DNA from: Prevotella sp.
GTDB lineage: Bacteria; Bacteroidota; Bacteroidia; Bacteroidales; Bacteroidaceae
Direction of reading: 5' to 3'
NCBI GenBank assembly: GCA_051875605.1
Contig: JBJEHA010000013.1
Span: 3,648-67,647, forward strand
Length of the DNA stretch: 64,000 nucleotides
Below, piece after piece: positions 4,738 through 60,032 of this stretch (position 1 is its first letter; each line of letters opens with the position of its first letter). Made by a program: the position numbers and the translations under genes. A model generated the notes under the pieces. The model made no database searches. It was not told the DNA's origin and worked only from the letters and a program-made list of their open reading frames with translations.

Positions 4738-5279
4738 CAAATTGTCAGAATTTTGTATATTTTCGTGACACTTTGATTTTTTGGCCATTTATGGATAATC
4801 ATGCGAGAGTGGAATTTTGTGCACCAGCGGAATTTTTGGGTTCCGGAGAGCTGTTTTGTAAACCATTGATAATCAATGGAATAAGTTTTTACATCCGGAA
4901 AGTGTTAACAAAAATCACCCGATTTTAACCTAAAATCCGTTAAATTCGTGCACAAAACAGCCAGTTTGTGCAGTTTTCAGTCCCCTTTTTTCGCACTTTT
5001 GGCCGGAAAATTGCGGTTTTGGGGTAGAAAAACCTGAGTTTTTGCCCCGAAACAGTTAAGTTTTTCCTCAAAAACACTTAAGTGCCGGATCGAAAATAGT
5101 TAACTAATTTTCTGGAAACAGTTAAGTGTTTCCCCCCTAACACTTAACTAATTTTTCCGTTTTGTGCAAAAAACCGACAATTCACACTTATTAACATGAA
5201 AACCAACCTAAAACCACCTGTTTTTCAAGACCACAAAAAATCAAAGTGTCACGAAAAAGCCAGTTTTCGTGACACTTTG
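4738..5279 (+). repeat. 542-bp dispersed intergenic element, copy 1
   Basis: End modules at 4738-4775 and 5242-5279; TTAA boxes at 5056/5078/5100/5122/5144; colinear with five other copies. Confidence 0.95.
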
Positions 5280-5339
5280 ATTTTAGGTAAACCATTCTCC
5301 TGTGCTTCATTCAGCAGGCTCATGCCGTTCCTGCACAGG

Positions 5340-6257
5340 TCAATATACACGCAGGGTATCGCCCACCCGTATCTGATAATAAGGTTCAAGATGATTTTTC
5401 TTGTACAGGCTTTTCAGTCGCATACCGTAACGTTGCGCGATGGAGTACATGCTTTCGCCTTCCTTGACCACATGTGGCCGTTTCTTGAACGCCTTGTCGG
5501 CCTTGCTACGCTTCTTTTTCAGATATACCACTTCGCCCTCGTTGAGTACATCCTTCCTGTTGCGTTCGTTGTAGCGTGCAATCTTCCGGTAGGATATGCC
5601 CACCTCCTTGCCGATGGAGCGGAACGTATCACCTTTGCGTGCTACGAGATAATAGTTGTCGTTGTAGCGGTAGATGGAATGCAACGTCTGTCCCTTGGCC
5701 GGCGTGTCGGTAGAAGAGTGATGGGCCAGGAATTTGTCATAGCTGGTTGCCCTGTCGTATTTCTGTAGCCCGTAGAGTTCAATGATTTCGATGAGCTTGT
5801 CGGCATAGCGCGGATTGGTGGCGTAACCACATCGCTTCAGCCCCACAGCCCACCCCTTGTAGTCGGTGCGTTTCAGGTTGAACAGCGAGGCATACCTGCC
5901 CGAAGTGGCCAGGAAGCGGCTATGGTCCTCATAGCTTTCCAGTACAGTATTGTATGCGCGGAAGCATTCCTGCCGTGCATCGTCGTCATGATAGGTCTTC
6001 CTGCCTGTCCACCCATGGCATTTTATGCCGAAGTGGTTATTGCCCTTCGTGGCCAGTTCACTTCTGCCAGCGGCACTCTCAAGCAGTCCCTGGGCCAGGG
6101 TTATGCTGGCGGGAATGTTATAGCGCAACATCTGTGAAATGGCAAGGTCCTTGTATTGGTCAATGTAGTTGAGATAAGCTGTATTCTGACGCAACTGCGC
6201 CTTTACGACGACTGTAGCCGTCAGGGTGAGCAGACAAAAAAGCAAACGTTTGATCAT
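5340..6257 (-). CDS. GH73 glucosaminidase with LysM domains (peptidoglycan hydrolase)
   Basis: Signal peptide; SITLAQGLLESAAG, NNHFGIKC and GYATNPRYA motifs; two C-terminal LysM-like repeats (ARKGDTFRSI, VKEGESMYSIAQRYG). Confidence 0.88.
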   Translation of the reverse strand: MIKRLLFCLLTLTATVVVKAQLRQNTAYLNYIDQYKDLAISQMLRYNIPASITLAQGLLESAAGRSELATKGNNHFGIKCHGWTGRKTYHDDDARQECFRAYNTVLESYEDHSRFLATSGRYASLFNLKRTDYKGWAVGLKRCGYATNPRYADKLIEIIELYGLQKYDRATSYDKFLAHHSSTDTPAKGQTLHSIYRYNDNYYLVARKGDTFRSIGKEVGISYRKIARYNERNRKDVLNEGEVVYLKKKRSKADKAFKKRPHVVKEGESMYSIAQRYGMRLKSLYKKNHLEPYYQIRVGDTLRVY

Positions 6258-6355
6258 CGCGTGATATTAAAAGAAACTTAAAAAATACAAAACGCAAAAA
6301 TACATATAATCAATCAAAAAACGCTAAAATAATGGGGGCATTTAAAATTAATTAG

Positions 6356-6363
6356 TAATTTTG
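6356..6363 (+). promoter_or_regulatory. -7 box upstream of folK
   Basis: TAATTTTG(CA) immediately before the GTG at 6368. Confidence 0.5.
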
Positions 6364-6367
6364 CAAT

Positions 6368-6751
6368 GTGACAGATAAGAAGAGAGTGGTCATAGCCCTC
6401 GGTTCCAACACCGATGCAGAAACGCACATGGAACAGGCCAAGCGACTTGTTTGCAATGGTTTCAGCCATGTCAGGTTCTCCTCTGCCGTATGGACAGAAG
6501 CCATCGGCATGGTGTCAGGCCCTTTCCTGAACTGCATGGCATCGGCGGAAACCGGAATGGATGTCCAGTCGGTGCTGCGGCTGCTGAAGGACATCGAGAC
6601 CCGATGTGGTGACAGGCAGTACCTCCGTGCGGAAAGCAAGGTGCTGATGGATGCCGACCTGCTGCTCTACGGATCGGAACGCCATCACAGGACCGATTGG
6701 GATCGCCCATACATAGGACAGCTCTACTCGGAATTATTGCAAAACAGATAA
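6368..6751 (+). CDS. folK: 2-amino-4-hydroxy-6-hydroxymethyldihydropteridine diphosphokinase (HPPK)
   Basis: IALGSN at the N-terminus, FLNC, and DADLLLYG motif. Confidence 0.8.
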   Translation: MTDKKRVVIALGSNTDAETHMEQAKRLVCNGFSHVRFSSAVWTEAIGMVSGPFLNCMASAETGMDVQSVLRLLKDIETRCGDRQYLRAESKVLMDADLLLYGSERHHRTDWDRPYIGQLYSELLQNR

Positions 6752-6759
6752 TCGTTTAT

Positions 6760-8031
6760 ATGTTCAGGTCTATCATTATTGCCGTGCTGGCTGGTCTTTC
6801 AGTCGGCACACATGCACAGGAATTTCACAAACACTTCAAGGACAGCACACTCAGAATTGACTATATCTTCGCCGGAAACACGGAACGGCAGGAGATTTCG
6901 CTCGACCGCATGCACACCATGCCCGGATGGTATGGGAAGCATGCACGGCTGGCAGAAGTGCCTGTAGAAGGCAACGGCCAGATTACCGTGCGCAGCCATC
7001 GTACCGGAGAGACCCTCTACCGCAACTCTTTTTCCACACTGTTCCAGGAATGGCTGTCCTATGACGAAGCCAAGACGGTCAGGAAATCGTTCGAGAATGT
7101 GTTCCTCGTACCTATGCCACGCGATACGGTGGACATCACTGTGGACCTGCGCAACAACCGCAGGGAAATCATGGCCAGCATGACCCACACCGTGGTACCT
7201 GGCGACATACTCATCAGGAAAACGGGGTTTGGCCGTACCACACCCTACTCCACTCTGCTGAAAGCAAAAGACCCGTCAAGGTGCATACACATCGCCTTCC
7301 TGGCTGAGGGCTATCAGGAGAGCGAGATGGAGATGTTTGAAAAGGATGCCTCCACAGCCATGGAGGCCATTTTCAGCCATGAGCCGTTCAAGTCCATGCG
7401 CGACAGGTTCAACGTCATAGCCGTGAAGTCGCCTTCGGAGGAGAGCGGAACCAGTGAACCTGCCAACGACATCTGGAAGAACACGGCACTGGGCAGTCAT
7501 TTCGACACGTTCTACAGCGACCGCTATCTGACCACACTCCATCTGAAGGACATGCACGACTGGTTGGCTGGTACGCCATACGAGCACATCATCGTGTTGG
7601 TGAATACCGGGAAATATGGCGGCGGAGGCATTCTCAACTCCTACAACCTCTCCATGACACATCATGAGAAATTCAAACCGGTGGTAGTACATGAGTTTGG
7701 ACACAGTTTTGCCGGATTGGGCGATGAATATGCCTACGAGGAGGAACTGATACCCATGTATCCGCATGACGTGGAGCCATGGGAAGCGAACCTGACCACG
7801 CTGGCAGATTTCCACGGAAAGTGGGAGACCATGATCGGAAAAGGCACTCCCATCCCTACCCCAGCCAATGGCGAAAAGGACAAGGTCGGGGTGTATGAAG
7901 GTGCAGGGTATAGTCCGAAGGGTGTGTACCGCGGTATGCAGGACTGCCGTATGCGCACCAACGAATACCCGGAGTTCTGTATGGTCTGTGAAAAGGCCTT
8001 ACGCAATCTCATAGACTTCTATACACGATAA
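6760..8031 (+). CDS. Peptidase M64 family (IgA peptidase-like)
   Basis: Signal peptide from ATG 6760; HEFGHSFAGLGDEY zinc motif; C-terminal CRMRTN...FCMVC. Confidence 0.85.
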   Translation: MFRSIIIAVLAGLSVGTHAQEFHKHFKDSTLRIDYIFAGNTERQEISLDRMHTMPGWYGKHARLAEVPVEGNGQITVRSHRTGETLYRNSFSTLFQEWLSYDEAKTVRKSFENVFLVPMPRDTVDITVDLRNNRREIMASMTHTVVPGDILIRKTGFGRTTPYSTLLKAKDPSRCIHIAFLAEGYQESEMEMFEKDASTAMEAIFSHEPFKSMRDRFNVIAVKSPSEESGTSEPANDIWKNTALGSHFDTFYSDRYLTTLHLKDMHDWLAGTPYEHIIVLVNTGKYGGGGILNSYNLSMTHHEKFKPVVVHEFGHSFAGLGDEYAYEEELIPMYPHDVEPWEANLTTLADFHGKWETMIGKGTPIPTPANGEKDKVGVYEGAGYSPKGVYRGMQDCRMRTNEYPEFCMVCEKALRNLIDFYTR

Positions 8032-8046
8032 AACAGGCTACAGCCG

Positions 8047-8649
8047 GTGAGTTACATGCAATTGTACGTGATTGCGCTGTTTGCCATGCTGTCAGAGTGG
8101 ACTTCGTCCTCAGCCATGGCACAGACCAGAAACGCAGACAGTGAACAGTTGTCCAAGGCCATCGAGTATTTCCAGAGTGGCAAGTACCATGAGGCCATGC
8201 TCATATTGCAGCCACTGGACAGCAGATATAAGCTCAATCCACGCTTCAGGGCTTATCTCGGCGTGTGCTGTTATTATGAATGGGACTATGAGAACGCGAC
8301 ACGATATCTGGACGAATCGCTTGGATATCTCGATGTTTTCGCTCCGCACGAACAGAGCATATACTATTACTGTGATGCCGAGAGCCATTTCCAGCTCGAA
8401 GCCTTCGAAAAAGCCATTCCACTGTATGAACGTGTGGTCAATGTGTGTTATGACAACGAAAAGGCTGACGTGTTCTTCAGGCTGGGATTCTGCTACATGT
8501 CCATGCGCCAATGGGAAACGGCACAGGAGTATTTCGAAAGTGCACAGGCCTACTATGTGCAGTTCGGCTGCCCAGACGATAAACTGCCAAGAATGGAGCA
8601 GCTGAAGAAAATGATTGCAGGATGTGCCCAATATCAAGGCAAAGACTGA
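8047..8649 (+). CDS. Tetratricopeptide-repeat protein, probably exported
   Basis: Helical repeats with TPR-like patterns (AESHFQLEAFEKAIPLY; FFRLGFCYMSMRQWETAQEYF). Confidence 0.7.
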   Translation: MSYMQLYVIALFAMLSEWTSSSAMAQTRNADSEQLSKAIEYFQSGKYHEAMLILQPLDSRYKLNPRFRAYLGVCCYYEWDYENATRYLDESLGYLDVFAPHEQSIYYYCDAESHFQLEAFEKAIPLYERVVNVCYDNEKADVFFRLGFCYMSMRQWETAQEYFESAQAYYVQFGCPDDKLPRMEQLKKMIAGCAQYQGKD

Positions 8650-8673
8650 CATTAAAGCGTATTGGCATGCAAA

Positions 8674-8689
8674 TGGCATGATGTTTGCT
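8674..8689 (+). promoter_or_regulatory. Putative sigma54 (-24/-12) promoter for clpC
   Basis: TGGCATG-ATGT-TTGCT versus consensus TGGCACG-N4-TTGCW (one mismatch), 31 nt before the clpC ATG. Confidence 0.5.
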
Positions 8690-8720
8690 GAATAAAACTA
8701 AACATTAATCAACTCATTTT

Positions 8721-11255
8721 ATGATGACCAGTCAATTCTCCCCCAACGTATCACAGATACTTGCCTTCAGTAAAGAAGAGGCCATGCGCCTTTCAAGCAA
8801 GGCCGTCGGGCCTGAACACTTGTTACTGGGCATACTCAGGGAAAAGGAAAGTCTGCTCGGGCGGATGTTTCTCATGATGGATGTGAACCCACAGACGGTC
8901 AAGAAGGAACTGGAGAAAAAAATCCAGGAAACCGACAGCAAGATAAATGGTCCGGTGATGGACATCATGCTCACAGACAAGGCCAGCAACATTCTTAAGC
9001 TGGCTGTTCTCGAAGCGCGTCTGCAACGCACTCAGACCGTTGACGTGCAGCATCTTGTACTGGCCATACTGCATGACTCTTCTGAAAATGGGGCCAAGGA
9101 AATTCTGGAAAACAACAATATGGACTACGATAATACACTCAAATTCTTCAAAAGCCAGACCAATCAGGTGCGTAATGGCATAGGATTGCCTGAAGACGAT
9201 GACCTGCTGGATGAACAGGCTGGCTCTGCAAAAGAAACAAAAGGCACACATAGTGCAACTGCCGTTAAGGGAAAGAACACAAAGACACCGGTTCTTGACA
9301 ATTTCTCAACAGACCTGACTCAGGCTGCTCTGGATGGCAAGCTCGACCCCGTTATCGGTAGGGAAAACGAAATCATGCGTGTCACGGAAATACTGAACAG
9401 ACGGAAAAAGAACAATCCCATACTCATCGGTGAACCGGGTGTGGGGAAAAGTGCCATAGCTGAAGGACTTGCACAACTCATTGCAAAACGTCAGACTTCA
9501 CCTTTGTTGTTCGGCAAGCGAATCGTCAGCCTGGACATGACCTCCATTGTTGCAGGAACAAAATACAGAGGACAATTCGAGGAACGCATACAGGCTTTAC
9601 TGAAAGAACTTGAAGAGAATAGTGATATCATTGTATTCATTGACGAGATTCACACGCTCGTGGGGGCAGGCAGTACACCGGGCAGCATGGATGCAGCCAA
9701 TATCATGAAACCGGCGTTGGCCAGAGGTACAATACAGTGTATCGGCGCAACGACACTAGACGAATACCGGAACAGCATAGAAAAAGACGGTGCATTGGAG
9801 CGTCGTTTCCAGAAGGTAATGGTGGAACCGACTACACCGGAGCAGACGCTGGACATTCTGCAAAACATAAAAGACAGGTATGAAACACATCACTTGGTAG
9901 AATATACAGACGATGCACTGAAAGCGTGTGTCAAGTTGACGGAACGATACATTACAGACAGATGTTTCCCCGACAAAGCCATAGACGCACTGGATGAAGT
10001 CGGTGCAAAAGTACATTTAAAGAATACAAGTGTCCCTCCGTTCTATGAGGAAATGCAGAAGGCCATTGACGATACCAAGACACAGAAAATGTGTGCTGTC
10101 AAAGAACAGAATTTTGAACTGGCTGCAAGAATCAGGGACAAACAGGTCGCTCTGGAGAAAGAGTTTGAGGACCTATGTGTGGAATATCTCAAAGACAAGA
10201 AGGAAAACCGCATAACTGTTACTGAAACGGAAGTTGCGGAAGTTGTTTCCATCATGTCGGGCGTTCCTGTTCAAAGAGTAGCAGAATCGGAAGGAATCCG
10301 GCTGAAAGGAATGGCAGAATCGCTTCGACAGGTTGTAGTGGCTCAGGATAAGGCTATAGACAAGATGGTGAAAGCCATCCTACGCAACAGGGTGGGACTG
10401 AAGGACCCTAACCATCCTATCGGAGTGTTCATGTTCCTTGGCCCAACGGGTGTAGGCAAGACTTATCTGGCAAAGGAACTGGCCAGGTTCATGTTCGGTT
10501 CCACGGATGCGCTCATCCGCGTGGACATGAGTGAATACACGGAGAGTTTCAATGTCTCCCGACTCGTCGGTCCGCCTCCAGGATATGTCGGCTATGAAGA
10601 AGGAGGCCAATTGACGGAAAAGGTTCGCAGACATCCCTATTCAATTGTCCTGCTTGATGAAATCGAGAAAGCCCATGGCAATGTATTTAACCTTTTGCTG
10701 CAGGTGCTTGACGAAGGCAGGTTGACAGACGGCAACGGCCGACTGGTTGATTTCCGCAACACAGTGATAATCATGACTTCAAACGCCGGAACAAGGCAAT
10801 TAAAGGATTTTGGCCGCGGAATAGGTTTCACTGCAACATCATTTGGTTCTGACATTGACGAGAGCGACAAGGAATATGCCAGAAGCATTATCCAGAAAAC
10901 ACTCAGCAAGCAGTTTGCGCCGGAATTCCTTAACCGTCTGGACGAAATCATCACATTCGACCAGCTCGACAAGAACGCCATCAAGTCGATTACGGATATA
11001 GAATTGGGTAAGTTACTTCGCCGGATGGAAGGCCTTGGCTATAGTGTCGAGGTGTCAGAGAAGGCAAGGGAACTGATTGCATCGAAGGGTTATGACGTGC
11101 AGTTCGGAGCCCGGCCGTTGAAACGTGCCATCCAGTCGTACGTAGAGGACGGCCTTTGCGAGATGATTCTAACGGATGAACTTCAGAAAGGTTCGAAGAT
11201 AATCGTTGACCGTGAAGACGGTGCTGAGAAACTTTCCTTCCGTGCCGAGCAATAG
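8721..11255 (+). CDS. clpC: ATP-dependent Clp protease ATP-binding subunit ClpC
   Basis: Clp N-domain, Walker A motifs GEPGVGKS and [11 protein letters not shown]-like [13 protein letters not shown] middle domain, [10 protein letters not shown]. Confidence 0.92.
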
Positions 11256-11328
11256 TCAAGTGCAGGATTTAGAGTGATTTAGTTCTGTTTTCCAGAAACA
11301 AAGTCCTGGTTGCAGGAAACGGATACAG

Positions 11329-11378
11329 GCGAACGCGCAGATAGACATGTGGAATTGTCTGTCTGCGCGTTCGCTTTT
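11329..11378 (+). terminator. Intrinsic terminator after clpC
   Basis: 19-bp stem GCGAACGCGCAGATAGACA/TGTCTGTCTGCGCGTTCGC (one G.T pair) followed by TTTT. Confidence 0.75.
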
Positions 11379-11401
11379 CCTGTTGTCATGGTGCAGTTTC
11401 T

Positions 11402-12478
11402 TCAGAGCATCCCTTTGGTTGAAGGAAGTATGAGGTGTGACACATCACGCCTGACCGCCATTTTCACAGCCTTTGCAAAAGCCTTGAAGATGCCTTCAAT
11501 CTTATGGTGCTCGTTAGTTCCGTCAGCACGGACATCCAGATTCATTCTTGCGGCATCGCTCAGGCTCTTGAAGAAATGGAAGAACATTTCCGTGGGCATT
11601 TCTCCGATTTTCTCCCGATGGAAGTCTGCTTTCCAGTTGAGCCATGCCCTTCCTCCAAAATCAAGGGCGACCTGACATAGACAGTCGTCCATAGGCAGAC
11701 AGAAGCCATAGCGTTCTATTCCCCGTTTATCGCCCAATGCGCGCATAAGGCATTCGCCCAGTGCTATGCCGGTATCCTCGATGGTGTGGTGCTCATCAAC
11801 GTGCAGGTCACCGCTAACGTGCACCTTCAAGTCGATAAGGCCGTGTCTCCCAATCTGTTCGAGCATGTGGTCGAAGAACCCCAGGCCTGTAGATATGTCG
11901 CACTTTCCTGATCCGTCCAGATTCATCTCTATGCTGATGTCAGTTTCGTGGGTCACTCTTTTGCAAACGGCCTTGCGTTCTCCGGCCAGCAGAAGTTCAG
12001 CGATTTTCTCCCAGGTCATACCGTCTTGTCCCAGAATCAAGGCCTTGCATCCCAGGTTTTCTGCCAGTTGTCTGTCTGTTTCCCTGTCCCCTATCACATA
12101 GCTGTTGGCCATATCATAGGCAGGATTGTCCAGATAGTGTGTCAGCATACCTGTACCGGGTTTGCGCATGGGGGAATTGTCTTCGGGAAAATGCCGGTCG
12201 ATGAGCTGTTCGTCAAATATTATCCCTTCCCCTTCAAGGGTCTGCAAAATGAAATTGTGAACCGGCCAGAATGTATCTTCAGGAAAAGATGCCGTGCCCA
12301 GACCATCCTGATTGCTCACCATCACACACCGGTAGTCATTGCGCTTGCACACTGCCGACAATGCTGCGAACACGCCATCGACAAACTTCAGCTTCCCGAA
12401 CGAGTCGATCTGCTCGTCGGCCGGCTCTTCTATCAGCGTCCCGTCCCGGTCTATAAAGAGTATTTTCTGTTTAACCAT
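11402..12478 (-). CDS. hisB: Bifunctional histidinol-phosphatase / imidazoleglycerol-phosphate dehydratase
   Basis: HAD motif FIDRDGTL in the N-domain; IGPD motifs [21 protein letters not shown]. Confidence 0.95.
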
Positions 12479-12490
12479 AATTACCTGTTA

Positions 12491-13384
12491 TCATTTCGTG
12501 ACTGCCTTGTCGGCATCAGCTTTATCCTTGTCTTTTCCCTTCATCCTGCTTTCCACGCTGGTATAGATGTAGTAATTGACAAGCATCACCCACATCAGCA
12601 CATAGGCCATAAGAAAGCCCACCGCAACCGAAACCGCAGCTTCCAGCAGACAGAAGTTCTCCGGCAGTCCGGACGCATCGCCGAGTGCCATGCCGAGTGC
12701 GTTTGACTGTTCTGCCAGAATGAGCACGTGTAGCGGCAAACCCAGGACTATGATAATGGGCACCAGGACAATGAGGGTGACGAACACGGTGATGAACATG
12801 AATCCTGCATATCGCCATGCCATGCGGTAGGGACGGCCGAACACTTCACGGATGGAGACATTCTCCTCCACGACATAGCGCATGCCGGTATAGACCAAAG
12901 GCAGGCATGCCATGCAGAAAACCAGCAGGTCTGCAGTGCTGATGGCCAGCATGCCCGTCAAGGTTGCAGGAACCCATTTCAGCAGCCCGGTCAACAGACT
13001 GCAGATGCCGATGTTCAGCAGTACATAGACCAGCCAGAGTGCAACATAGATGCCCGCAAGCTTCAGGTTGTGCATGTAGAGCTGTTTCAGACTGCCACCC
13101 CTCAGCAGCATGACAAAGCGCGTGGACAGCCAACACAGTACCAGGATGCCCGCGATGGCGGAAAGCACCGACAGTACCAGGGGCACGAAAATGGCAGATG
13201 GCTTCGCGTGGAAGTCCACCTCCGGAATCATATAGGCCAGACCATTGAGCAGTGCAAACGCAAGAGCGGCTGTCCATGTGTTCCGGGTGATGACGCCGAA
13301 ATTATCGCAGAACGTCAGAAAGGCACTTTTCAGGCAGGCTGAAAAACTGCGTACCTTGAACAATTCTTTATCTATCATATTCAT
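12491..13384 (-). CDS. Hypothetical integral membrane protein
   Basis: Five to six hydrophobic segments; its start overlaps the stop of the upstream methyltransferase. Confidence 0.65.
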   Translation of the reverse strand: MNMIDKELFKVRSFSACLKSAFLTFCDNFGVITRNTWTAALAFALLNGLAYMIPEVDFHAKPSAIFVPLVLSVLSAIAGILVLCWLSTRFVMLLRGGSLKQLYMHNLKLAGIYVALWLVYVLLNIGICSLLTGLLKWVPATLTGMLAISTADLLVFCMACLPLVYTGMRYVVEENVSIREVFGRPYRMAWRYAGFMFITVFVTLIVLVPIIIVLGLPLHVLILAEQSNALGMALGDASGLPENFCLLEAAVSVAVGFLMAYVLMWVMLVNYYIYTSVESRMKGKDKDKADADKAVTK

Positions 13385-14145
13385 ATTATTGTTTGTTTTC
13401 TGAATTCAGCGCAAACCACAGCCGTGGCTATGGCTACATTGAGGCTCTCTGCACATGTCGTTTCCTGTTGATAACAAGGTATATAGAGCCTCCGGTTCAC
13501 GCGTTTCCTTATGTCTTCAGATATGCCGTTGCCCTCATTTCCCATCACTATCATGCCGTGATGCGTGAGCTGCTGCGCATAGATGTTCTCGCCATCGAGC
13601 AGCGTGCCATAAACCGGATAGCCATCGGGCAAGCGGTCGATGAATGCGGACAGGTCTGTGTAGCACAGCCTCACGCGTGCTATGCTTCCCATGGTGGCCT
13701 GCACCACTTTCGGATTATATTGGTCGGCACAATCCGGGCTGCACACTATGGTATCGATGCCGAACCAGTCAGCCACCCGGATGATTGTGCCGAGATTGCC
13801 GGGATCCTGCACCCCGTCAAGAGCCAGGCAAAGGCGGTGCTCCACATCGGCTGCTGACAGGCTGGCTGACGGCTGACGGAAAACGGCGATTACCTGTTGC
13901 GGATGTTGCAGGAAACTTACCTTGCGCAGGGTTTCCTCATCCACCTCATACAATTCCGTGTCTTCAGGCAGTCTTTTCCCCACCGGTTGCCATTGGGATG
14001 TAGCAGCAACAAGTACGGGCACCAAGCCATGGTCAAGCAGGTCGCCCACCACTTTCGGCCCTTCCGCCACGAACACCCCTTCCGCCCTCCGGTTCTTCTT
14101 CAGTTCGAGTGAACGGATGTATTTTATCTTGTTCTTACTGAGCAT
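13381..14145 (-). CDS. TrmH/SpoU family RNA methyltransferase
   Basis: SpoU motifs LDGVQDPGNLGTIIR, GNEGNGIS, ESLNVAIA. Confidence 0.9.
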   Translation of the reverse strand: MLSKNKIKYIRSLELKKNRRAEGVFVAEGPKVVGDLLDHGLVPVLVAATSQWQPVGKRLPEDTELYEVDEETLRKVSFLQHPQQVIAVFRQPSASLSAADVEHRLCLALDGVQDPGNLGTIIRVADWFGIDTIVCSPDCADQYNPKVVQATMGSIARVRLCYTDLSAFIDRLPDGYPVYGTLLDGENIYAQQLTHHGMIVMGNEGNGISEDIRKRVNRRLYIPCYQQETTCAESLNVAIATAVVCAEFRKQTII

Positions 14146-14161
14146 GCCCTCAATTTTTGTG

Positions 14162-14169
14162 CAAACTTA
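14162..14169 (-). promoter_or_regulatory. -7 box for the methyltransferase operon
   Basis: Reverse complement TAAGTTTG(CA). Confidence 0.55.
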
Positions 14170-14248
14170 CATATTTTTTTCCGAATAACCACAGTGACAG
14201 GTTTGTTTAACGCGATTCAACATTCTAAGCGCAATAAAAGCCAAAAAT

Positions 14249-14790
14249 CAAAGTGTCAGATTTTTAACACTTTTGCTTACATTTTGATTTTCCAGCCATT
14301 TCTGAAGATTCGGAGGGAACCTGGTTTTTGCGCGCCAACGATTTTTTTTGATTTTGGACGGCTGTTTTGTAAATCATTGATAGTCAATGAGATGATTTTT
14401 TAAAGACCGGGAGTGTTAAAGAAAATCGTCCGATTTTAACATAAAATCCGTTAAATTTATGCACAAAATGCGCGGTTTGTGCAGTTTTCAGCCCCCTTTT
14501 TTCGTACTTTTGGCTGGAAAATCGCGGTTTTGGGGCCGAAAAACCTGAGTTTTTGCCCCGAAACAGTTAAGTTTTTCCTCAAAAACACTTAAGTGCCGGA
14601 ACGAAAATAGTTAACTAATTTTCTGGAAACAGTTAAGTGTTCCCCCCCTAACACTTAACTGATTTTTCCGTTTTGTGCAAAAAACCGACATTTTGCACTT
14701 GTTAACATGAAAATCGGCTCAAAACCGCCTGTTTTTCAAGACCCCGAAAAATCAAAGTGTAAGCAAAAACGTTAAAATTCTGACACTTTG
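14249..14790 (+). repeat. 542-bp dispersed intergenic element, copy 2
   Basis: End modules at 14249-14286 and 14753-14790; first TTAA box at 14567 (offset 319, as in copy 1). Confidence 0.95.
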
Positions 14791-25593: not shown

Positions 25594-26134
25594 CAAAGTG
25601 TCAGGATTTTAACACTTTTGCTTACACTTTGATTTTTCGGCATTCGTAAAAGCGGCCAGTTTTGGGTCGATTTTCATGTTAATAAGTGTGAATCGTCAGT
25701 TTTTTGCACAAAACGGGAAAATCAGTTAAGTGTTAGGGGGGAAACACTTAACTGTTTCCAGAAAATTAGTTAACTATTTTCGATCCGGCACTTAAGTGTT
25801 TTTGAGGTAAAACTTAACTGTTTCGGGGCAAAAACTCAGGTTTTTCGGCCTCAAAACCGCGATTTTCCGGCCAAAAGTGCGGAAAATGGGGGCTGAAAAC
25901 TGCACAAACTGGCTTTTTTGTGCACGAATTTAACGGATTTTAGGTTAAAATTGTGCGGTTTTTGTTAACACTTCGCATCAGTAAAAAATATACCATTGAT
26001 TATCAATGGTTTACAAAACAGGCCTCCGAAACCTGGAATTTACGCTGGCGCAAAAAAATCCGAATTCGCCGGATTCTACAGAAATGGTCGAAAAATCAAA
26101 GTGTAAGCAAAAATGTTAAAAAACTGACATTGTG
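25594..26134 (-). repeat. 541-bp dispersed intergenic element, copy 3 (reverse orientation)
   Basis: End modules at 25594-25631 and 26097-26134; one 1-nt deletion relative to the other copies between offsets 142 and 165. Confidence 0.95.
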
Positions 26135-36624: not shown

Positions 36625-37166
36625 CAAATTGTCACATTTTCGTTCATTTCTGTGACACTTTGATTTTTCAGGATTATGAAAAAAAGGCGGTTTGAGGCTG
36701 ATTTTCATGTTAATAAGTGTGAATTGTCGGATTTTTGCACAAAACGGGAAAATTAGTTAAGTGTTAGGGGGGAAACACTTAACTGTTTCCGGAAAATTAG
36801 TTAACTGTTTTCGTTCCGGCACTTAAGTGTTTTTGAGGAAAAACTTAACTGTTTCGGGGCAAAAACTCAGGTTTTTCGGCCTCAAAACCGTGATTTTCCA
36901 GCCAAAAGTGTGGAAAAAGGGGGTTGAAAATTGCACAAATCGCGTGTTTTGTGCGTAAATTTAACGGATTTTAGGTTAAAATTGGACGGTTTTTATTAAC
37001 ACTTTCCGTCCATAAAAACTTATCTTATTGATTATCAACGGTTTTCAAAAAAGGTCTCTGAAACCGAGAAATTCCGCTGGCGTTCAAAAATACACTTCCG
37101 TCTGATTCTTCAGAAATGGCCGGAAAATCAAAGTGTAAGCAAAAGTGTTAAAAAAATGACACTTTG
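36625..37166 (-). repeat. 542-bp dispersed intergenic element, copy 4 (reverse orientation)
   Basis: End modules at 36625-36662 and 37129-37166; first TTAA box at offset 319. Confidence 0.95.
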
Positions 37167-46478: not shown

Positions 46479-47020
46479 CAAAATGTCAGAATTTTGACGT
46501 TTTTTGTGACACTTTGATTTTCGGGCCATTTATGAAGATTTGGGCGAGAACGGATTTTTATGCGCCAGCGGAAAATTCCGGTTTTGGAAGACTAATTTGT
46601 AAACCATTGATAATCAACGGGATAAGTTTTTACAATCACAAAGTGTTAACAAAAACCGCCCGATTTTAACCTAAAATCCGTTAAATTCGTGCACAAAACG
46701 CGCGATTTGTGCAGTTTTCAGCCCCCATTTTCCGCACTTTTGGCCGGAAAATCGCGGTTTTGAGGCCGAAAAACCTGAGTTTTTGCCCCAAAACAGTTAA
46801 GTTTTTCCTCAAAAACACTTAAGTGCCAAGACGAAAATAGTTAACTAATTTTTCGGAAACAGTTAAGTGTTTCCCCCCTAACACTTAACTGATTTTTCCG
46901 TTTTGTGCAAAAAACCGGCAATTCACACTTATTAACGTGAAAATCGGTCAAAAACAGCCCGTTTTTCAGCACTCAGAAAAATCAAAGTGTCAGCAAAACC
47001 GTTAAAAATTTGACACTTTG
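46479..47020 (+). repeat. 542-bp dispersed intergenic element, copy 5
   Basis: End modules at 46479-46516 and 46983-47020; first TTAA box at 46797 (offset 319). Confidence 0.95.
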
Positions 47021-47107: not shown

Positions 47108-47127
47108 CAGCGGCTTGCAAAATGCAA

Positions 47128-47245
47128 GCTAAAGGGGTGCCCGCTGTGGCGGGCTGAGATCAGACCCTCTGACCTGATCCGGGTAATGCCGGCGTAGGGA
47201 TTTGGCAAAACATAAAAAGTGCCCCTTTTTGTGTATTCTTTTTTT
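47128..47245 (+). ncRNA. TPP (thi-box) riboswitch with terminator-type expression platform
   Basis: P1 GCTAAA/TTTGGC (47128-47133/47201-47206); GGGGTGC...GCTGAGA...ACCTGATCCGGGTAATGCCGGCGTAGGGA core; hairpin ACATAAAAAG/CTTTTTGTGT (47210-47234) plus a T-rich tract. Confidence 0.92.
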
Positions 47246-47258
47246 ATTAGCAACATTC

Positions 47259-49580
47259 ATGAAAAAATTTTCAATGCTTCTTGCCGCAGCCTTGTGCGCT
47301 GGCGCCAATGCCCAGGCAGGATGGAGAACCGAACCGGTGGACACAGCTGAGACCCACGTGCTGCAGGATGTGCAGGTAGTGGCAACAAGAGCCGGAAAGA
47401 ACACGCCTATGGCATTCAGCAACATGGGCAAACAGGAAATTGCACGCGAGAACTACGGTAAGGACCTGCCGCAGCTGCTCTGGCTCATGCCTTCGGTAAC
47501 TGTATCGTCTGACGCTGGTATGGGCATCGGCTATACTGGCATCCACGTGCGCGGTACTGACCCCACACGCATCAACGTGACGGCCAACGGCATTCCAATG
47601 AACGATGCAGAGAGCAGCCAACTCTACTGGGTGAACATGGGCGACTTCGCATCCAGTCTTGAGAGCATCCAGCTACAGCGTGGCGCAGGTACATCTACAA
47701 ACGGCGCGGGCGCATTCGGAGCAACACTCAACATGCAGACGGAAAACATCGGCTCACAGCCTTACGGCAGCCTTGACCTCTCGGCCGGTACATACGGCAC
47801 ACACAAGGAAACGTTCCGCTTCTCTACAGGTCTGCTTGGCGGTCACTGGGGTTTCCAGGGACGCTTGTCAAACATAAGCAGCGACGGCTATATTGACCGC
47901 GCACAGTCAAGGCTCGGCTCCTATTTCCTGCAAGGCGGATATTTCAGCGACAACACCATGGTGAAACTCGTGACATTCAACGGCAAGGAAAAAACCTATA
48001 TGGCATGGGACTATACCTCAAAAGCCGACATGGAACGGTACGGACGCACCTACAACCCTTGTGGACAATACACTGCCGCCGATGGTTCGACAGCCTATTA
48101 CAGCAACCAGACCGATAACTATCACCAGCAGCACTACCAGCTCATCTGGACACAGCGCATGGACAGCAAATGGAGCCTGAACACGGCACTGCACTATACA
48201 CGTGGCGACGGCTATTACGAGCAGTTCAAGAGCGGACAGAAACTGTACAAGTATCTGCTGTCCAAAAAAGAAGATGGTCTATATGCCGACCTCGTAAGGC
48301 AGAAGAAGATGGAGAACGACTTCTACGGGGCAATCGCCGCGCTGAACTATGACAACGGCAATGGCATCCAGGCCACTGTAGGCGGTGGATGGAACAAGTA
48401 CGACGGCGACCACTTCGGCAAGCTGCTCTGGGTGGGCAGTCCGTATATGGAAATGACGACAGCCGATGGCGATGACTACAACGACTACCGAGGCGGGAAT
48501 ATCGTGACTTCACCCGACCATGAATATTATCGCAACAATGCCAAGAAGACCGATGGGCATTTCTACGGCAAGCTGACATGGGAAATCGTGAACGGACTGA
48601 GCATATTTGCCGATGTACAATACAGGCATGTAGGATATAAGATGAGCGGTTTGTCACAGGAGTTCGACGGCAACACGCAGCTTCCGCTTACGCTCGACAA
48701 GAAGTATGACTTCTTTAATCCCAAGGCAGGTCTGTCATGGACTCCCGCTGAAGGCCATAGCCTGTATGCTTCCTATGCCATTGCCCACAAGGAACCTACG
48801 CGCAACGACTTCGAGGACATGATGGCCGAGACGGATGTGGTGAACCCGCAGGCCGAAAGGCTCAACGACCTGGAAATAGGCTATCGTTATGAGAGCAACC
48901 GTTTCCATGCCGGTGTCAACCTTTACTATATGGACTACGACAACCAGTTCGTGCTCACCGGCGCACAGGACTCCAACGGCGAGATGGTGGCACGCAACAT
49001 AAAGGACAGCTACCGCATGGGCATGGAACTGACTGCCGGGTGGAACATTGCCAAAGGTCTTGACTGGAACGTGAACGCCACATGGAGCAAGAACAGGGCC
49101 AAGGACATGAGCCTGACCGTGATCAATGAGGACTGGAGCCAGTCGTATGTCAATGTGGGAACAACTAAACTGGCCTTCTCCCCCGACCTCATTGCCAGTA
49201 GTGTGTTGAGCTACGGGTACAAGGGATGGCGCGCCGCATTCATGACAAAATACGTGGGCGAACAGAATATGACCAACTCCGGTTTCAAGCGTTTCCTCAA
49301 CACGGACGGACAGACTTATACAAGTGCAGTGATTGATGCCATGTGCGTGAGCGACCTCGACCTTTCCTATACATTCAGGTGGAAAGGCGTGAAGGAAGCC
49401 ACTGTGGGCGTGACCATATACAACCTGTTCAACGAGGAATATGAAAGCAACGGAAGCTGCAGCATGAACTTCAAGAACGACGGCGGAAAGGTTGTGGCCT
49501 ACGATGGGGGATGGGCATGGGCTACCTATTCAGCACAGGCACCCACACACTTCCTGGCACATCTGTCCATAACATTCTAA
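47259..49580 (+). CDS. TonB-dependent receptor, probable thiamine uptake
   Basis: Signal peptide from ATG 47259, LQDVQVVA TonB box, plug IQLQRGAGTS, terminal SITF; lies under a TPP riboswitch. Confidence 0.88.
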   Translation: MKKFSMLLAAALCAGANAQAGWRTEPVDTAETHVLQDVQVVATRAGKNTPMAFSNMGKQEIARENYGKDLPQLLWLMPSVTVSSDAGMGIGYTGIHVRGTDPTRINVTANGIPMNDAESSQLYWVNMGDFASSLESIQLQRGAGTSTNGAGAFGATLNMQTENIGSQPYGSLDLSAGTYGTHKETFRFSTGLLGGHWGFQGRLSNISSDGYIDRAQSRLGSYFLQGGYFSDNTMVKLVTFNGKEKTYMAWDYTSKADMERYGRTYNPCGQYTAADGSTAYYSNQTDNYHQQHYQLIWTQRMDSKWSLNTALHYTRGDGYYEQFKSGQKLYKYLLSKKEDGLYADLVRQKKMENDFYGAIAALNYDNGNGIQATVGGGWNKYDGDHFGKLLWVGSPYMEMTTADGDDYNDYRGGNIVTSPDHEYYRNNAKKTDGHFYGKLTWEIVNGLSIFADVQYRHVGYKMSGLSQEFDGNTQLPLTLDKKYDFFNPKAGLSWTPAEGHSLYASYAIAHKEPTRNDFEDMMAETDVVNPQAERLNDLEIGYRYESNRFHAGVNLYYMDYDNQFVLTGAQDSNGEMVARNIKDSYRMGMELTAGWNIAKGLDWNVNATWSKNRAKDMSLTVINEDWSQSYVNVGTTKLAFSPDLIASSVLSYGYKGWRAAFMTKYVGEQNMTNSGFKRFLNTDGQTYTSAVIDAMCVSDLDLSYTFRWKGVKEATVGVTIYNLFNEEYESNGSCSMNFKNDGGKVVAYDGGWAWATYSAQAPTHFLAHLSITF

Positions 49581-52999: not shown

Positions 53000-53396
53000 G
53001 CTTTCTGGCATATTCCTTAAACTCATCGTATTCGTAGATATAATCATCTTCATCAAAGAGTTCTGAAGCCAGGACCAGGCATACAGCACCCGATGAAAAA
53101 TCCTCAAGTGTCCTCCATATACCTGTTCCTACATAAAGCCCTTCGTAAGGATGATTAAGGTGTATCGTTTGCTTCTCCTGCCCGTCATCCAATGTAACAT
53201 CAAACGAACCGTTTGCAGCAATGATAATTTCCTCACATTCCTTGTGGGCATGACCACCACGTCGTTCTCCAGCCGGTATGTCATATGTCCAGTAAACCCT
53301 TTTAGATACAAAAGGAATGGATTTCTGCGATTCTGCAACAGTAAGATTTCCTCTGGGATCGGTAATCTTGGGTAATCTGATTATCTTTATGTTCAT
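52992..53396 (-). CDS. FdtA/QdtA family cupin (dTDP-4-keto-6-deoxyglucose 3,4-ketoisomerase)
   Basis: DPRGNL, RGGHAH, GSFDV, LASELFDEDDYI. Confidence 0.85.
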   Translation of the reverse strand: MNIKIIRLPKITDPRGNLTVAESQKSIPFVSKRVYWTYDIPAGERRGGHAHKECEEIIIAANGSFDVTLDDGQEKQTIHLNHPYEGLYVGTGIWRTLEDFSSGAVCLVLASELFDEDDYIYEYDEFKEYARKHV

Positions 53397-54448: not shown

Positions 54449-54475
54449 AAACAGTCTATTGCCAGGTCAGGCCCT

Positions 54476-55657: not shown

Positions 55658-55663
55658 TGTTTT

Positions 55664-56797: not shown

Positions 56798-56814
56798 ATA
56801 TAGTATAAGTGATT

Positions 56815-57318
56815 TTATGCTTTTCTGCTGTCATTCAGGGTCACCACTTCACAGTCCGTGAAACGTTGTCCCTCTATGGTGAGCCTCACGATGGTCCTGT
56901 CCTTGTGCCATCCCTGCATGCCTGCCGCTCCGGGATTGATGTGGAGCATGTTGAGTGTCTTGTCGAACTGGACCTTAAGGATGTGCGAGTGTCCGCAGAC
57001 AAAGAGCCGGGGCGGTGAGGCGTAGAGCGTGCCGCGCACCGAGGGGTCGTAGTGTCCGGGATAGCCGCCAATATGCTTCAGCAACACGTCAACATCTTCG
57101 CACTTGAAGCGTAGCCGTTCTGTGAACATGCGTCTGAGGTCGCCTCCGTCACAGTTGCCGCAGACCGCCCTCAGCATCCGGAAATCCGCCAGCCGCTGGG
57201 CGACCTCAAGCGTTCCTATATCACCCGCATGCCATATCTCATCACAGGGCTCAAAGTAGTGCAGATAGCGGTCATCCCACCATCCGTGGGTATCGCTGAT
57301 GATGCCGATGCGCTTCAT
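56815..57318 (-). CDS. YfcE-like metallophosphoesterase
   Basis: SDTHG, HAGD, GNCD, GHSH, NPG motifs. Confidence 0.85.
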   Translation of the reverse strand: MKRIGIISDTHGWWDDRYLHYFEPCDEIWHAGDIGTLEVAQRLADFRMLRAVCGNCDGGDLRRMFTERLRFKCEDVDVLLKHIGGYPGHYDPSVRGTLYASPPRLFVCGHSHILKVQFDKTLNMLHINPGAAGMQGWHKDRTIVRLTIEGQRFTDCEVVTLNDSRKA

Positions 57319-57977
57319 GGCAACTGACTTTCTGGTACATCCCCGCCGTCACCGGGACAAGCCTTTCTCCGCTCCTCCACATAGTGTGCCAGCAGTTCCA
57401 CCGTACCCTCGATTCCCAGGCGCGACGAGTTGACGCAGAGGTCATAGCCGTCTGCCGCCGCCCAGATCTTGCCTGTATAGTAGTTGTAATACGCGGCCCT
57501 CCGTGTCTCGGTGTCGTCTATGTATTTTGCAGCCGAATCCTCGTCACATCCTCTTCTCAGTGCCACCCTTTGCAACCGTTCCTTGGCATCGGCCGTAACG
57601 AATACGCTCACCATGCCTGGAAAGTCGCGCAGGATATAGTCTGCACACCTTCCCACAAAGACACAGCTGCCTTTTTCCGCCGCCTTCCTGATGGCCTCCG
57701 ACTGCAACTGGAACAGCCATTCCTGCGAGAATCTGTTGTTGTAGAAATTGCTGTCGCCCACATGCGGCGCGTGCAGGTGGAAAAGTGTCTTGAGAAACCC
57801 TCGGTTTTCATCGTTCTCCTCAAAGAATTCCGTGCAGAAACCGCTTTCATCGGCAGCGAGGCTCAGGATTTCCCTGTCGTAGAACTGTGCGCCCAGTCGC
57901 TCGGCCAGTGCCTTGGCTATGGTCGAACCTCCACTGCCCATCTGTCGGCCTATGCAGATTGTCATATTGTTGTCCAT
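57315..57977 (-). CDS. Cytidylate kinase-like family protein
   Basis: IGRQMGSGG P-loop variant, VFVGRCADYIL, YDLCVNSS. Confidence 0.8.
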   Translation of the reverse strand: MDNNMTICIGRQMGSGGSTIAKALAERLGAQFYDREILSLAADESGFCTEFFEENDENRGFLKTLFHLHAPHVGDSNFYNNRFSQEWLFQLQSEAIRKAAEKGSCVFVGRCADYILRDFPGMVSVFVTADAKERLQRVALRRGCDEDSAAKYIDDTETRRAAYYNYYTGKIWAAADGYDLCVNSSRLGIEGTVELLAHYVEERRKACPGDGGDVPESQLP

Positions 57978-57986
57978 TGCTATCGG

Positions 57987-59342
57987 TCAGTTATGTTGTT
58001 GTCTTCTTGTCCGTTTCATGAAAAGCCCCATCACCACCGCTGTCACCACCGCCGAGCAAAGGTCTGATGCCGGCATGGCATACCAAACGCCGTCCACGCC
58101 CCAGATGCGCGGCAGCAGCACGAGCAAGGGCAGCAGGAATATGAGCTGCCGAGAGAGCGACAGGAATATGCTCACACTGGCCTTGCCGATGCTCTGGAAG
58201 AAATTGGTGATGACCATCTGGTAGCCTACGACCGGCAGCACGAGCATGAGTATGCGCATGGCACGCACCGTGAGCTGTGTCAGTTCCTCGTCGCTGGTGA
58301 ACAGCCTTGCACACGGATGTGTGAAGAACTCCGCCAGCACCCATCCGCCGGTCATCACGACCGTTGCCGCCATAATAGAGAGGAACAGCGCCCGCATGAG
58401 CCTGTCCGTATGCCCGGCACCATAGTTGTAACCGGCAATGGGCTGCATGCCCTGGTTGATGCCCATCGTCACCATGACAAAGATGAATGCCACCCTGTTG
58501 GCTATGCCGTATGCACCCACAGCCATATCGCCTCCGTGGCGCATCAGGCCGTTGTTGATGAACACCACCACCAGGCAGGCACAGGCATTCATGGCAAAAG
58601 GTGAGCAGCCTATGCCCACGATGTTCCTGACGATGGTCCATCGCGGTGCGAAGGTACCTTGTTCCAGGTGAACCAGCTCATCCTGACGGCAGAACACAGA
58701 GAGCTGCCACACCATGGCCACAGCCTGTGACAGCACCGTGGCCCACGCTGCACCGCGGATGCCCATTCCCAGACCATAGATGAAGAGCGGGTCGAGCAAC
58801 GTATTGAGTGCCACCGTGCACATGGTGGCGTACATGGCCTTACGCGGTTTCCCCGATGCCCGCAAGGCTGCATTCATGCCGAAATAGACATGCGTGACCA
58901 CATTGCCCAGCAGAATCACCTGCATATAGTCGCGTGCATAGGGAATGGTCTGTTCGCTCCCGCCGAAGAACAGCAGGATGTGGTCAAGGAAGAGCATGCT
59001 CACAACGCAGAACACCAGTCCGATGACCACATTCAGTGTCATGGTGTTGCCCAGTATGTGGACTGCCGTCCGGTAGTCCTTCTGCCCGAGCTTCACGGAG
59101 ATGAGCGTAGAGGCTCCCACACCTATCGCTGCACCGAAAGCGGCCGAGAGATTCATGAAGGGGAACGTCACGGCCAGACCGGATATGGCGAGTGCGCCCA
59201 CTCCCTGCCCGATGAAAATGCTGTCCACCATATTATAGAGGGAAGAAGCCGTCATGGCAATGATTGCAGGCAAAGCATATTGCATGAGCAACCGTCCCAC
59301 AGGTTTCGTTTCCAGCTCCAGAGTAGCTCTTCTGTTGTCCAT
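57987..59342 (-). CDS. MATE family efflux transporter
   Basis: PAIIAMTASSLYNMVDSIFIG, LNTLLDPLFI, GIRGAAWAT; twelve-TM pattern; ATG 59342; -7 box TATTTTTG at 59361-59368 on the minus strand. Confidence 0.9.
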   Translation of the reverse strand: MDNRRATLELETKPVGRLLMQYALPAIIAMTASSLYNMVDSIFIGQGVGALAISGLAVTFPFMNLSAAFGAAIGVGASTLISVKLGQKDYRTAVHILGNTMTLNVVIGLVFCVVSMLFLDHILLFFGGSEQTIPYARDYMQVILLGNVVTHVYFGMNAALRASGKPRKAMYATMCTVALNTLLDPLFIYGLGMGIRGAAWATVLSQAVAMVWQLSVFCRQDELVHLEQGTFAPRWTIVRNIVGIGCSPFAMNACACLVVVFINNGLMRHGGDMAVGAYGIANRVAFIFVMVTMGINQGMQPIAGYNYGAGHTDRLMRALFLSIMAATVVMTGGWVLAEFFTHPCARLFTSDEELTQLTVRAMRILMLVLPVVGYQMVITNFFQSIGKASVSIFLSLSRQLIFLLPLLVLLPRIWGVDGVWYAMPASDLCSAVVTAVVMGLFMKRTRRQQHN

Positions 59343-59490
59343 CTTCTGCTGATTATGCTGCAAAAATACAAAAAAAACGGCACTTAGGGTAGTCTGTGCT
59401 GCAAGAAAATGCACATATTCCGCCCCACCCGTCTGCAAATGGCTTCCAACGCTTCCAACTATACCGGAAGAATGCGCAGGGAAGGAAAAT

Positions 59491-60032
59491 CAAAATGTCA
59501 GATTTTCAGCCGATTTTGTGACACTTTGATTTTTCGCGGTCTTATAAAAAAGACTATTTTGGCCGGATTTTCATGTTAATAAGTGTAAATTACCGGTTTT
59601 TTGTACAAAATGGAAAAATCAGTTAAGTGTTAGGGGGGAAACACTTAACTGTTTCCAGAAAATTAGTTAACTATTTTTGTTCCGGCACTTAAGTGTTTTT
59701 GAGGCAAAACTTAACTGTTTCGGGGCAAAAACCTATGTTTTTCGGCCTCAAAACCGCGTTTTTCCGACCAAAAGTGCGGAAAAAGGGGGCTGAAAACTGC
59801 ACAAATCACGAGTTTTGTGCATGAATTTAACGGATTTTAGGTTAAAATCGGACGCTTTTTGTTAACACTTCACACCCATAAAAAACTACCCCATTGATTA
59901 TCAACGGTTTACAAAACAAGTCTCTAAAACCCAAAAAATACGCTGGCACGTAATAATCCGATCTCGCCCGACTCTTCAGAAATGGCCAGAAAATCAAAGT
60001 GTAAGCAATTGTGTTAAAAAACTGACACTTTG
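59491..60032 (-). repeat. 542-bp dispersed intergenic element, copy 6 (reverse orientation)
   Basis: End modules at 59491-59528 and 59995-60032; first TTAA box at offset 319. Confidence 0.95.

Follow-up and report, generated by a model that had tools for sequence, protein, structure and literature searches.

Whether interspersed copies of a non-coding repeat can divide a bacterial chromosome at regular distances is the question raised by a 64,000-nucleotide stretch of Prevotella sp. DNA (assembly GCA_051875605.1, contig JBJEHA010000013.1, positions 3,648 to 67,647; hereafter the window), which holds six copies of an intergenic element of 542 bp. The start-to-start distances reported in the first-pass annotation of the window (9511, 11345, 11031, 9854, and 13012 bp) are exact and have a coefficient of variation (CV) of 0.127, and from them a period of ~11 kb, selected or enforced, had been proposed. 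Analysis of the whole genome indicates that the spacing is indeed non-random, but that it follows a different rule: a second copy almost never lies within ~8.5–9 kb of an existing one, and beyond this distance placement is random. The evidence base is one fragmented metagenome-assembled genome (MAG) of 2.83 Mb in 95 contigs, in which the window corresponds to C13:3648-67647. Interspersed bacterial repeats are usually reported to be random or clustered, whereas the family of ~150 copies described here keeps a zone of ~9 kb around each copy free of others; no report of such hard-core spacing in a bacterial repeat family was found in the literature searched.

Copies were located using an nhmmer profile built from the six window copies, which identified 182 loci: 102 full-length copies, 66 partial copies at contig ends, and 14 internal partial matches, most of which are pieces of a variant family of ~820 bp (family B, as distinct from family A of the window). 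After allowing for broken copies that are counted twice, the family comprises ~140–175 members. The copies are intergenic, with a preference for large and divergent gaps between genes. No orientation bias was found relative to flanking genes, neighbouring copies, GC skew, or gene strand, the last two being weak proxies for the direction of replication in an assembly whose contig order is unknown.

The 102 within-contig gaps between copies have a mean of 16.2 kb, a median of 13.9 kb, and a CV of 0.49, and range from 3.8 to 54 kb. For comparison, 112 internal copies were placed randomly among intergenic gaps defined by crude gene calls in 2000 simulations, with four versions of the null admitting all intergenic gaps, those of at least 50 bp, those of at least 100 bp or non-tandem, or those of at least 150 bp. 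Each version predicts ~35 distances below 6.5 kb, with a minimum of 19–23 in any simulation, whereas only two are observed, and the observed CV compares with a predicted value of ~0.9 (lowest simulation 0.65). Since both the number of short gaps and the CV lie outside all null simulations, the short-range avoidance is real and very strong. Random placement is thereby rejected for the genome as it had been for the window, but the regularity of the window does not extend to the genome as a whole. The CV of the window is the lowest among eight runs of five gaps, and five gaps drawn randomly from the genome reach it with a probability of 0.014; as a sample, the window is a favourable one, taken from around the mode of the gap distribution.

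The gap distribution is described best by a soft exclusion zone of ~9.1 kb (width ~1 kb) followed by an exponential tail with a mean of ~7.5 kb, for which the negative log-likelihood is 1035.9, as against 1038.4 for a lognormal, 1042.0 for a gamma, and 1090.4 for a simple exponential distribution. The excess past 9–9.5 kb is exponential (Kolmogorov-Smirnov (KS) p 0.88–0.95). A simulation of random sequential insertion with a hard core of 8.5 kb, a true mean of ~19 kb, and truncation by contig ends agrees with the observed gaps (KS p 0.95) and yields, after truncation, a mean of 16.2 kb and a CV of 0.46. Kaplan-Meier estimation with contig ends treated as censored gives a median of 16.8 kb, a mean of ~20 kb, and a survival of 0.988 at 6.5 kb. 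The fitted density of copies is ~60% of the jamming density, and a hard-core rule at this fraction of maximum packing therefore generates stretches that look periodic without any period. A strict period of ~11 kb, which calls for a narrow symmetric distribution with harmonics, is contradicted by the breadth and exponential tail of the observed one: no harmonics are seen, a periodogram of the gaps over periods of 4–20 kb has no peak that exceeds a lognormal null significantly (p 0.18), adjacent gaps are uncorrelated, no upper limit on gap length was found, and there are contigs of 33–38 kb without any copy. The data require repulsion between copies and nothing more, with neither a ceiling on the gaps nor a phase.

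Two ordinary sources of spacing were considered and rejected. Genes or operons do not set the distances, because every null that respects intergenic gaps still produces the excess of short distances noted above and because the CV is larger when gaps are counted in genes (0.56) than in base pairs (0.49); the distance is counted in bases, not genes. Nor do the long gaps appear to be islands acquired later, as none of the six tyrosine recombinases of the genome is located in a long gap.

A deficit of short gaps could also be produced by the assembly itself, if short pieces between elements had been lost from the MAG or if contigs had been stitched together at repeats. In this species the conserved core of the element does interrupt short-read assemblies and can cause false joins: of the 190 contig ends, 66 fall inside an element, and pieces shorter than the smallest contig (2.3 kb) would be missing if both flanking copies had broken the assembly. 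An artefact of this kind is nevertheless extremely unlikely. The 102 full-length copies were assembled straight through, and close pairs would therefore be visible inside contigs. The bin retained 23 contigs of 2.3–9 kb; an element stands at an end of 10 of these, but in no case do elements close the contig at both ends, and the shortest contig running from element to element measures 9953 bp. Independent data agree with the lengths in the window, since two other runs yielded Logan contigs of 9049 and 9060 bp that match the segment between copies 1 and 2, and Logan contigs of 9493 and 9522 bp that match the one between copies 4 and 5, in each case ending inside elements. Independent assemblies either carry copy 2 or break within it, copy 4 has the same neighbours in ENA contig k141_908836, and a 21-kb ENA contig preserves the gene order of the window from just past copy 3, through copy 4, to copy 5. 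A second abundant repeat family could not serve as an assembly control, the sole other repetitive extragenic palindromic (REP) family having 12 loci, which is too few.

One independent assembly does link different flanks. Positions 9353-9906 of contig k141_496818 (ENA ERZ27279456) contain a hybrid element that connects the flank of a copy on contig C76 with that of copy 2. The left third of the hybrid agrees exactly with copy 2 and the right third with C76:20700-21243, the middle corresponds to neither, and the switch lies in the conserved core. The hybrid is either an assembler chimera or a natural recombinant. Because it joins different flanks, the order of segments across elements is not trustworthy; wrong joins leave the lengths of the unique segments unchanged, however, and the spacing statistics, which rest on these lengths, therefore stand. 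The concern raised in the first-pass annotation that elements might mark artificial contig joins is accordingly relevant in part, to segment order and not to segment length. Two other repeats that involve copies of the element were noted in the assembly. A 332-bp inverted repeat, 100% identical between C30:129535-129866 and C30:130323-130654, surrounds a single element and consists of the element ends plus ~280 nt of flank, with one copy of a GC-rich hairpin (the wing, described below) on each side; such a structure may have arisen through a recent inverted duplication or as a palindrome made by the assembler. The copies at C40:33094 and C53:49450 are 93.5% identical and share a right flank of 200 nt that is 100% identical, which suggests a segmental duplication or contigs from strain variants.

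The element, bounded in the window by CAAAG and CTTTG, is nearly fixed in length, with 542 bp in 68 and 543 bp in 16 of the 96 copies in which both ends are recognisable. Every copy carries at both ends, in inverted orientation, a palindromic module of 38 bp, CAAAGTGT-N22-ACACTTTG, which closes with ACA[C/T]TTTG. In this genome 241 end modules lie inside elements, and only four doubtful matches lie outside. As a single strand the element folds as a panhandle (z = -8.8). Outside each end is a short G/C-rich stretch followed by a run of A4 or T4, the polarity of which is independent at the two ends (29/23/17/12 over the four combinations). Throughout the element, A/T tracts recur with a phase of 10.7 bp (spectral power 8.6, compared with a maximum of 3.3 after shuffling), and the core contains five boxes, A(C/G)TTAA(C/G)T, that follow one another at a pitch of exactly 22 bp; in copy 2, boxes 4 and 5 together make a 12-bp inverted repeat with a run of C at its centre. 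The core is conserved at ~95–99% over the 102 copies, as are the A/T tracts and motifs including TTGATAATCAA and TGCACAAA...TTTGTGCA. The consensus contains no Bacteroidetes -7 promoter box (TAnnTTTG), nor does any position have one in more than five of the 102 copies; Rfam gives no match, either at the gathering threshold or at E values up to 1; and mutual information over 229 variable columns is high solely between adjacent columns. Because there is no Rfam match, covariation, or -7 box, the constraint on the element is probably exerted at the level of DNA. A structured non-coding RNA gene was rejected on the lack of an Rfam match and of covariation, and an inverton of the Bacteroidales type on the lack of a promoter box and on the presence of a recombinase gene beside just one copy, which belongs to family B.

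By analogy with transposons that show target immunity, the zone may have been imposed at insertion, through cis-acting exclusion of new copies by resident ones. This is the reading that we favour, at somewhat less than even confidence. Insertion exclusion appeared in the first-pass annotation among the mechanisms that might enforce an ~11-kb period; the period has not survived, but exclusion is the simplest process that reproduces the data. A protein on the ends of a resident copy would make the neighbouring few kb a poor target, on the model of MuA at the ends of Mu clearing MuB, or of TnsB clearing TnsC. The family would then have ceased to move, as suggested by the fact that no two copies are more than 95% identical, and would since have been held under strong constraint on sequence and length. 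The hard core of ~8.5–9 kb is a pattern consistent with immunity, in which new copies are excluded near a resident one, and the element has further traits of mobile DNA, namely inverted 38-bp ends, intergenic sites, restriction to one lineage, hairpin-bounded relatives in the Prevotellaceae MAG JAUNOM01, and the variant family B. That the bin contains a Mu-type transposase together with an AAA+ ATPase partner also counts in favour of this reading.

Target immunity of Mu, Tn7, and Tn3 likewise closes a zone of a few to tens of kb in cis to new copies. In the case of Mu, no insertions are found within 1.5 kb and the bulk frequency is attained at ~7 kb, with older data showing decay over 5–25 kb (PMC7350765). 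The Mu zone is thus of the same order as that observed here, and it works via repeated binding sites in the transposon. Unlike these systems, the present pattern is a static, chromosome-wide imprint of a non-coding element, and no transposition event was observed. If it is an imprint of target immunity, it would be a case of immunity shaping a whole chromosome, and the gaps would provide an in-genome measure of the range of a transposition system in the Bacteroidota.

Several observations weigh against exclusion at insertion. No transposase is linked to the element, and the only Mu-like pair of transposase and ATPase is on the atypical contig C9 (4073 bp), which encodes a Mu-type transposase (rve and Mu-transpos_C domains, 490 aa), an AAA_22 ATPase (269 aa), and DUF6618 and HIRAN proteins. 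The GC fraction of C9 is 0.447, no other small contig deviates as strongly in tetranucleotide composition, and its sequence does not resemble that of the repeat; C9 represents either a mobile element of recent arrival or a contig binned in error. The element lacks a target-site duplication, whereas Mu, Tn7, and Tn3 all make duplications of 5 bp. The ends of Mu and Tn7 carry binding sites of 22 bp, whereas the 22-bp boxes here are central and not terminal. The maximum identity of 95% gives no sign of recent movement. Deletions since the time of insertion would be expected to smear out an old imprint, whereas the edge at ~9 kb is still fairly sharp. A host function would explain the strong constraint on more than 100 copies no less well than a relic of transposition would.

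The relationships among the copies bear on how this constraint and the spacing arose. Pairwise identity averages 82%, both overall and outside the core, and no pair qualifies as a recent duplicate (>95%). The median number of private substitutions is one per copy, 91 of the 102 aligned copies are free of indels, ~150 positions vary at frequencies of at least 15%, and decayed fragments are almost absent. The family is under strong constraint on both sequence and length. Linkage between variable sites falls to the level of independence past ~80–160 bp. Some variants are multi-nucleotide blocks that occur at intermediate frequency without linkage to other parts of the element; point mutation does not suffice for these blocks, which call for short-tract gene conversion or reassortment. 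[quoted passage not shown] The nearest same-genus genomes have ~63% amino-acid identity in the flanking Omp85 protein and have lost synteny, and are thus too distant for a comparison of empty sites.

If copies recombine, the zone could have been cleared after the fact: copies would land randomly, and close pairs would recombine by homologous or site-specific exchange and either collapse to one copy or cause lethal deletions. The near-identical core of 120 bp is a substrate for such recombination, the hybrid element joining different flanks in another assembly is in keeping with it, and the four shortest gaps are all between inverted pairs, which are unable to delete the intervening DNA, although this last observation is not significant (P ~0.09). 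Purging of close pairs is nonetheless quite unlikely, as the copies are only ~82% identical outside the core and the balance of orientations is unchanged across distance bins. Neighbours are no more alike than random pairs (0.825 versus 0.823), a result which argues against local gene conversion and on which local hopping was also rejected. To our knowledge, moreover, no behaviour of recombination between repeats of 0.5 kb predicts a cut-off at ~9 kb.

Alternatively, the spacing may be maintained by selection on the host. The element would in this case be an architectural DNA site in which curved DNA is combined with a box array for a putative dedicated protein, and selection would act against pairs closer than ~9 kb because of their mutual interference; such a site could anchor a plectoneme tip or a topological domain, or could serve to load a protein that spreads or slides over a few kb. 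Consistent with this possibility are the helical phasing of A/T tracts over the whole element, the near-fixed length with few indels and few private substitutions, the conservation of the five TTAA boxes while ~150 other positions vary freely, the near absence of decayed fragments, and a random orientation, as expected of a symmetric role at the DNA level, whereas a role as RNA is unlikely for the reasons given above. Curved DNA is known to pin plectonemes (PMC6301789), which also counts in favour of host selection. Sites of the parS/ParB, matS/MatP, Noc, and SlmA systems and plasmid iterons likewise consist of short palindromic boxes in phase, protein binding being putative for the boxes here; those sites differ in being 13–20 bp long, conserved from genus to genus, and grouped in a single macrodomain or at a single origin, whereas the present element is a 542-bp composite dispersed in one species. 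No partner protein of the ParB or Rep type was found, no search being aimed at one.

Selection by the host is possible but doubtful. The element is confined to a single species, 24 same-genus genomes lacking it, so that an essential organising system would have to be very young; the longest gaps and the copy-free contigs imply that the chromosome is not tiled; and no binding protein has been tied to the boxes. The mosaic conservation could also result from selection at the level of the family together with short-tract gene conversion, and no linkage disequilibrium ties the multi-nucleotide dimorphisms to other parts of the element. The chromosome-organising function suggested in the first-pass annotation (domain anchors, or gyrase, SMC, or NAP sites) may be correct and is favoured by the phased tracts, the fixed length, and the box array, but nothing in the data requires regular coverage of the chromosome. 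A more specific form of the proposal, which we consider improbable, is that the element is a domesticated architectural module, each site claiming ~9 kb, with the spacing kept by selection instead of dating from biased insertion. A five-box array for the putative protein would be surrounded by phased curved DNA amounting to about 50 helical turns, with the hairpin ends serving as insulation, and the module would organise supercoiled or protein-coated domains, the arrays of families A and B representing two specificities. If the spacing is maintained by selection, the element would constitute a sequence-encoded unit of nucleoid organisation, roughly the size of a supercoil domain, and if the module exists in this specific form, a bacterium would possess a dispersed, sequence-encoded system of domain anchors. 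The exact length, phased A-tracts, and invariant box array provide clear handles for experiments.

Taken together, exclusion at insertion, selection by the host, purging of close pairs, and assembly artefact account in our estimation for most but not all of the probability, the remainder being left to other mechanisms.

Comparison with known classes of repeat is also informative. [quoted passage not shown] Unlike MITEs, the 542-bp element is long and nearly invariant in length, has no target-site duplication and no related autonomous insertion sequence (IS) that could be found, is conserved as a mosaic, includes no near-identical pairs, and is spaced by a hard core. No direct repeat of 3–9 nt, at any offset, exceeds the permutation expectation around the element. 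No parent transposon with the same ends was found, the end modules occurring solely in elements and no Tn3 transposase being present in the genome, and the sole rve transposase, on C9, shares no sequence with the element. Assignment as a MITE was rejected on these two tests despite inverted end modules of 38 bp or more in all copies.

REP sequences, bacterial interspersed mosaic elements (BIMEs), and REP doublets forming hairpins (REPINs) also consist of palindromic hairpin modules arranged as mosaics in intergenic DNA, but the 542-bp element is much larger and avoids itself, whereas REPINs in Pseudomonas fluorescens SBW25 are random in extragenic space or clustered (PMC3116915). The genome contains three matches to Y1_Tnp, one of which is an IS605 transposase with tnpB, one is flanked by AACCGCGGCGCGGTT palindromes, and one by GC-rich wings. 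None of the three genes is flanked by the CAAAGTGT...ACACTTTG module, and a system of REPs or REPINs with a REP-associated tyrosine transposase (RAYT) acting on this module was therefore rejected. The hairpin ends and the missing target duplication would fit an element derived from IS200/IS605; insertion of such elements is also strand-specific relative to replication, and the orientation of the copies shows no link to GC skew or gene strand, both weak proxies here.

The wings themselves are GC-rich hairpins of ~115 nt (CTGGGGGTGTGGGCGT...ACGCCCACACCCCCAG) found at 68 loci, 63 of which are within ~65 nt of an element end; about one third of the elements are abutted by a wing, none of them in the window. 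At C30:70289-72346 three stand-alone wings flank a Y1_Tnp (RAYT-like) region within a stop-free frame of 1271 codons. The wings and this gene look like a REPIN/RAYT system that targets the ends of the larger, 542-bp element.

Family B shares its ends and left arm with family A but has the core swapped for four boxes of the TTCACGCCGTGAACACTATA type, each ~21–22 bp, in an array that reads TTCACGCCGTGAA (boxes GTTCAC-GCC-GTGAAC); we take these boxes to be loosely like parS half-sites. Copies of B follow the same spacing as those of A, and this cross-exclusion, which counts for exclusion at insertion, would place the exclusion determinant in the shared ends or arm. On contig C11 (72.8 kb), which contains the dcw cell-division cluster, three B copies are 23.7 and 23.0 kb apart and there are no A copies. 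The tyrosine recombinase that lies beside a copy, the only one of the six in the genome to do so, is encoded at C11:19991-20998 (-), where it adjoins a family B element between two divergent SusC-like genes, a layout that resembles the recombinase-controlled SusC shufflons of Bacteroides.

Searches with the core pattern found nothing in GTDB species genomes, JGI metagenomes, and viral contigs, as did searches with the whole element in plasmids and phages. Matches to the pattern in a related MAG put the genome in the Prevotellaceae. Perfect stand-alone modules, CAAAGTGTCAGAAAAA-N6-TTTTTCTGACACTTTG, are present in JAUNOM01, and a few in one same-genus genome. JAUNOM01 has about seven elements of ~416 bp (up to ~580) in which two modules bound an unrelated interior with palindromic boxes of its own (Table 1). 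It also has ~30 solitary modules just past gene ends, placed like bidirectional terminators. Within its contigs, and setting aside the paired bounding modules, the distances are few and all at least 6 kb, a sample too small to test.

Table 1. Locations of the window copies, of reference parts of copy 2, and of related elements. Plain coordinates refer to the window.
Feature	Location	Strand	Description
Copy 1	4738-5279	+	542 bp, CAAATTGTCAG...GTGACACTTTG; perfect-hairpin type at both end modules
Copy 2	14249-14790	+	542 bp; flanked by divergent genes, SpoU methylase (-) and ABC-F ATPase (+)
Copy 3	25594-26134	-	541 bp; flanked by convergent genes, TonB-dependent receptor and GHL10 hydrolase
Copy 4	36625-37166	-	542 bp; phosphofructokinase (PFK) gene (-) on one side, acyltransferase operon (+) on the other
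Copy 5	46479-47020	+	542 bp; 60 nt past Omp85 gene, ~100 nt ahead of thiamine pyrophosphate (TPP) riboswitch
Copy 6	59491-60032	-	542 bp; flanked by divergent genes
Inter-element segment 1-2	5280-14248		8969 bp, ~9 genes; example of the unique segments behind the gap distribution
End module of copy 2	14249-14286; 14753-14790	+; inverted	38 bp
Conserved core of copy 2	14560-14670	+	TTAA at 14567, 14589, 14611, 14633, 14655
Family B locus	C11:19154-19966		
Family B locus	C11:42895-43750 (approx.)		
Family B locus	C11:65888-66717		
Family B locus	C29:52311-53106		
Family B locus	C29:61432-62283		
Family B locus	C75:26529-26807		
JAUNOM01 element	C61:14782-15199		
JAUNOM01 element	C55:8538-8953		
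JAUNOM01 element	C25:25521-25936		
JAUNOM01 element	C40:5626-6041		
JAUNOM01 element	C24:20023-20540		
JAUNOM01 element	C59:47212-47791		

All six copies in the window are intergenic, in tandem, divergent, and convergent gene contexts, and adjoin ordinary chromosomal genes, including xseA and those encoding SpoU methylase, ABC-F ATPase, TonB-dependent receptors, PFK, and Omp85. The TPP riboswitch near copy 5 (RF00059, 75 bits) occupies 47123-47218 on the + strand, directly upstream of a TonB-dependent receptor gene at 47202-49580. Copy 5 is located between the Omp85 stop codon and this riboswitch and disrupts neither.

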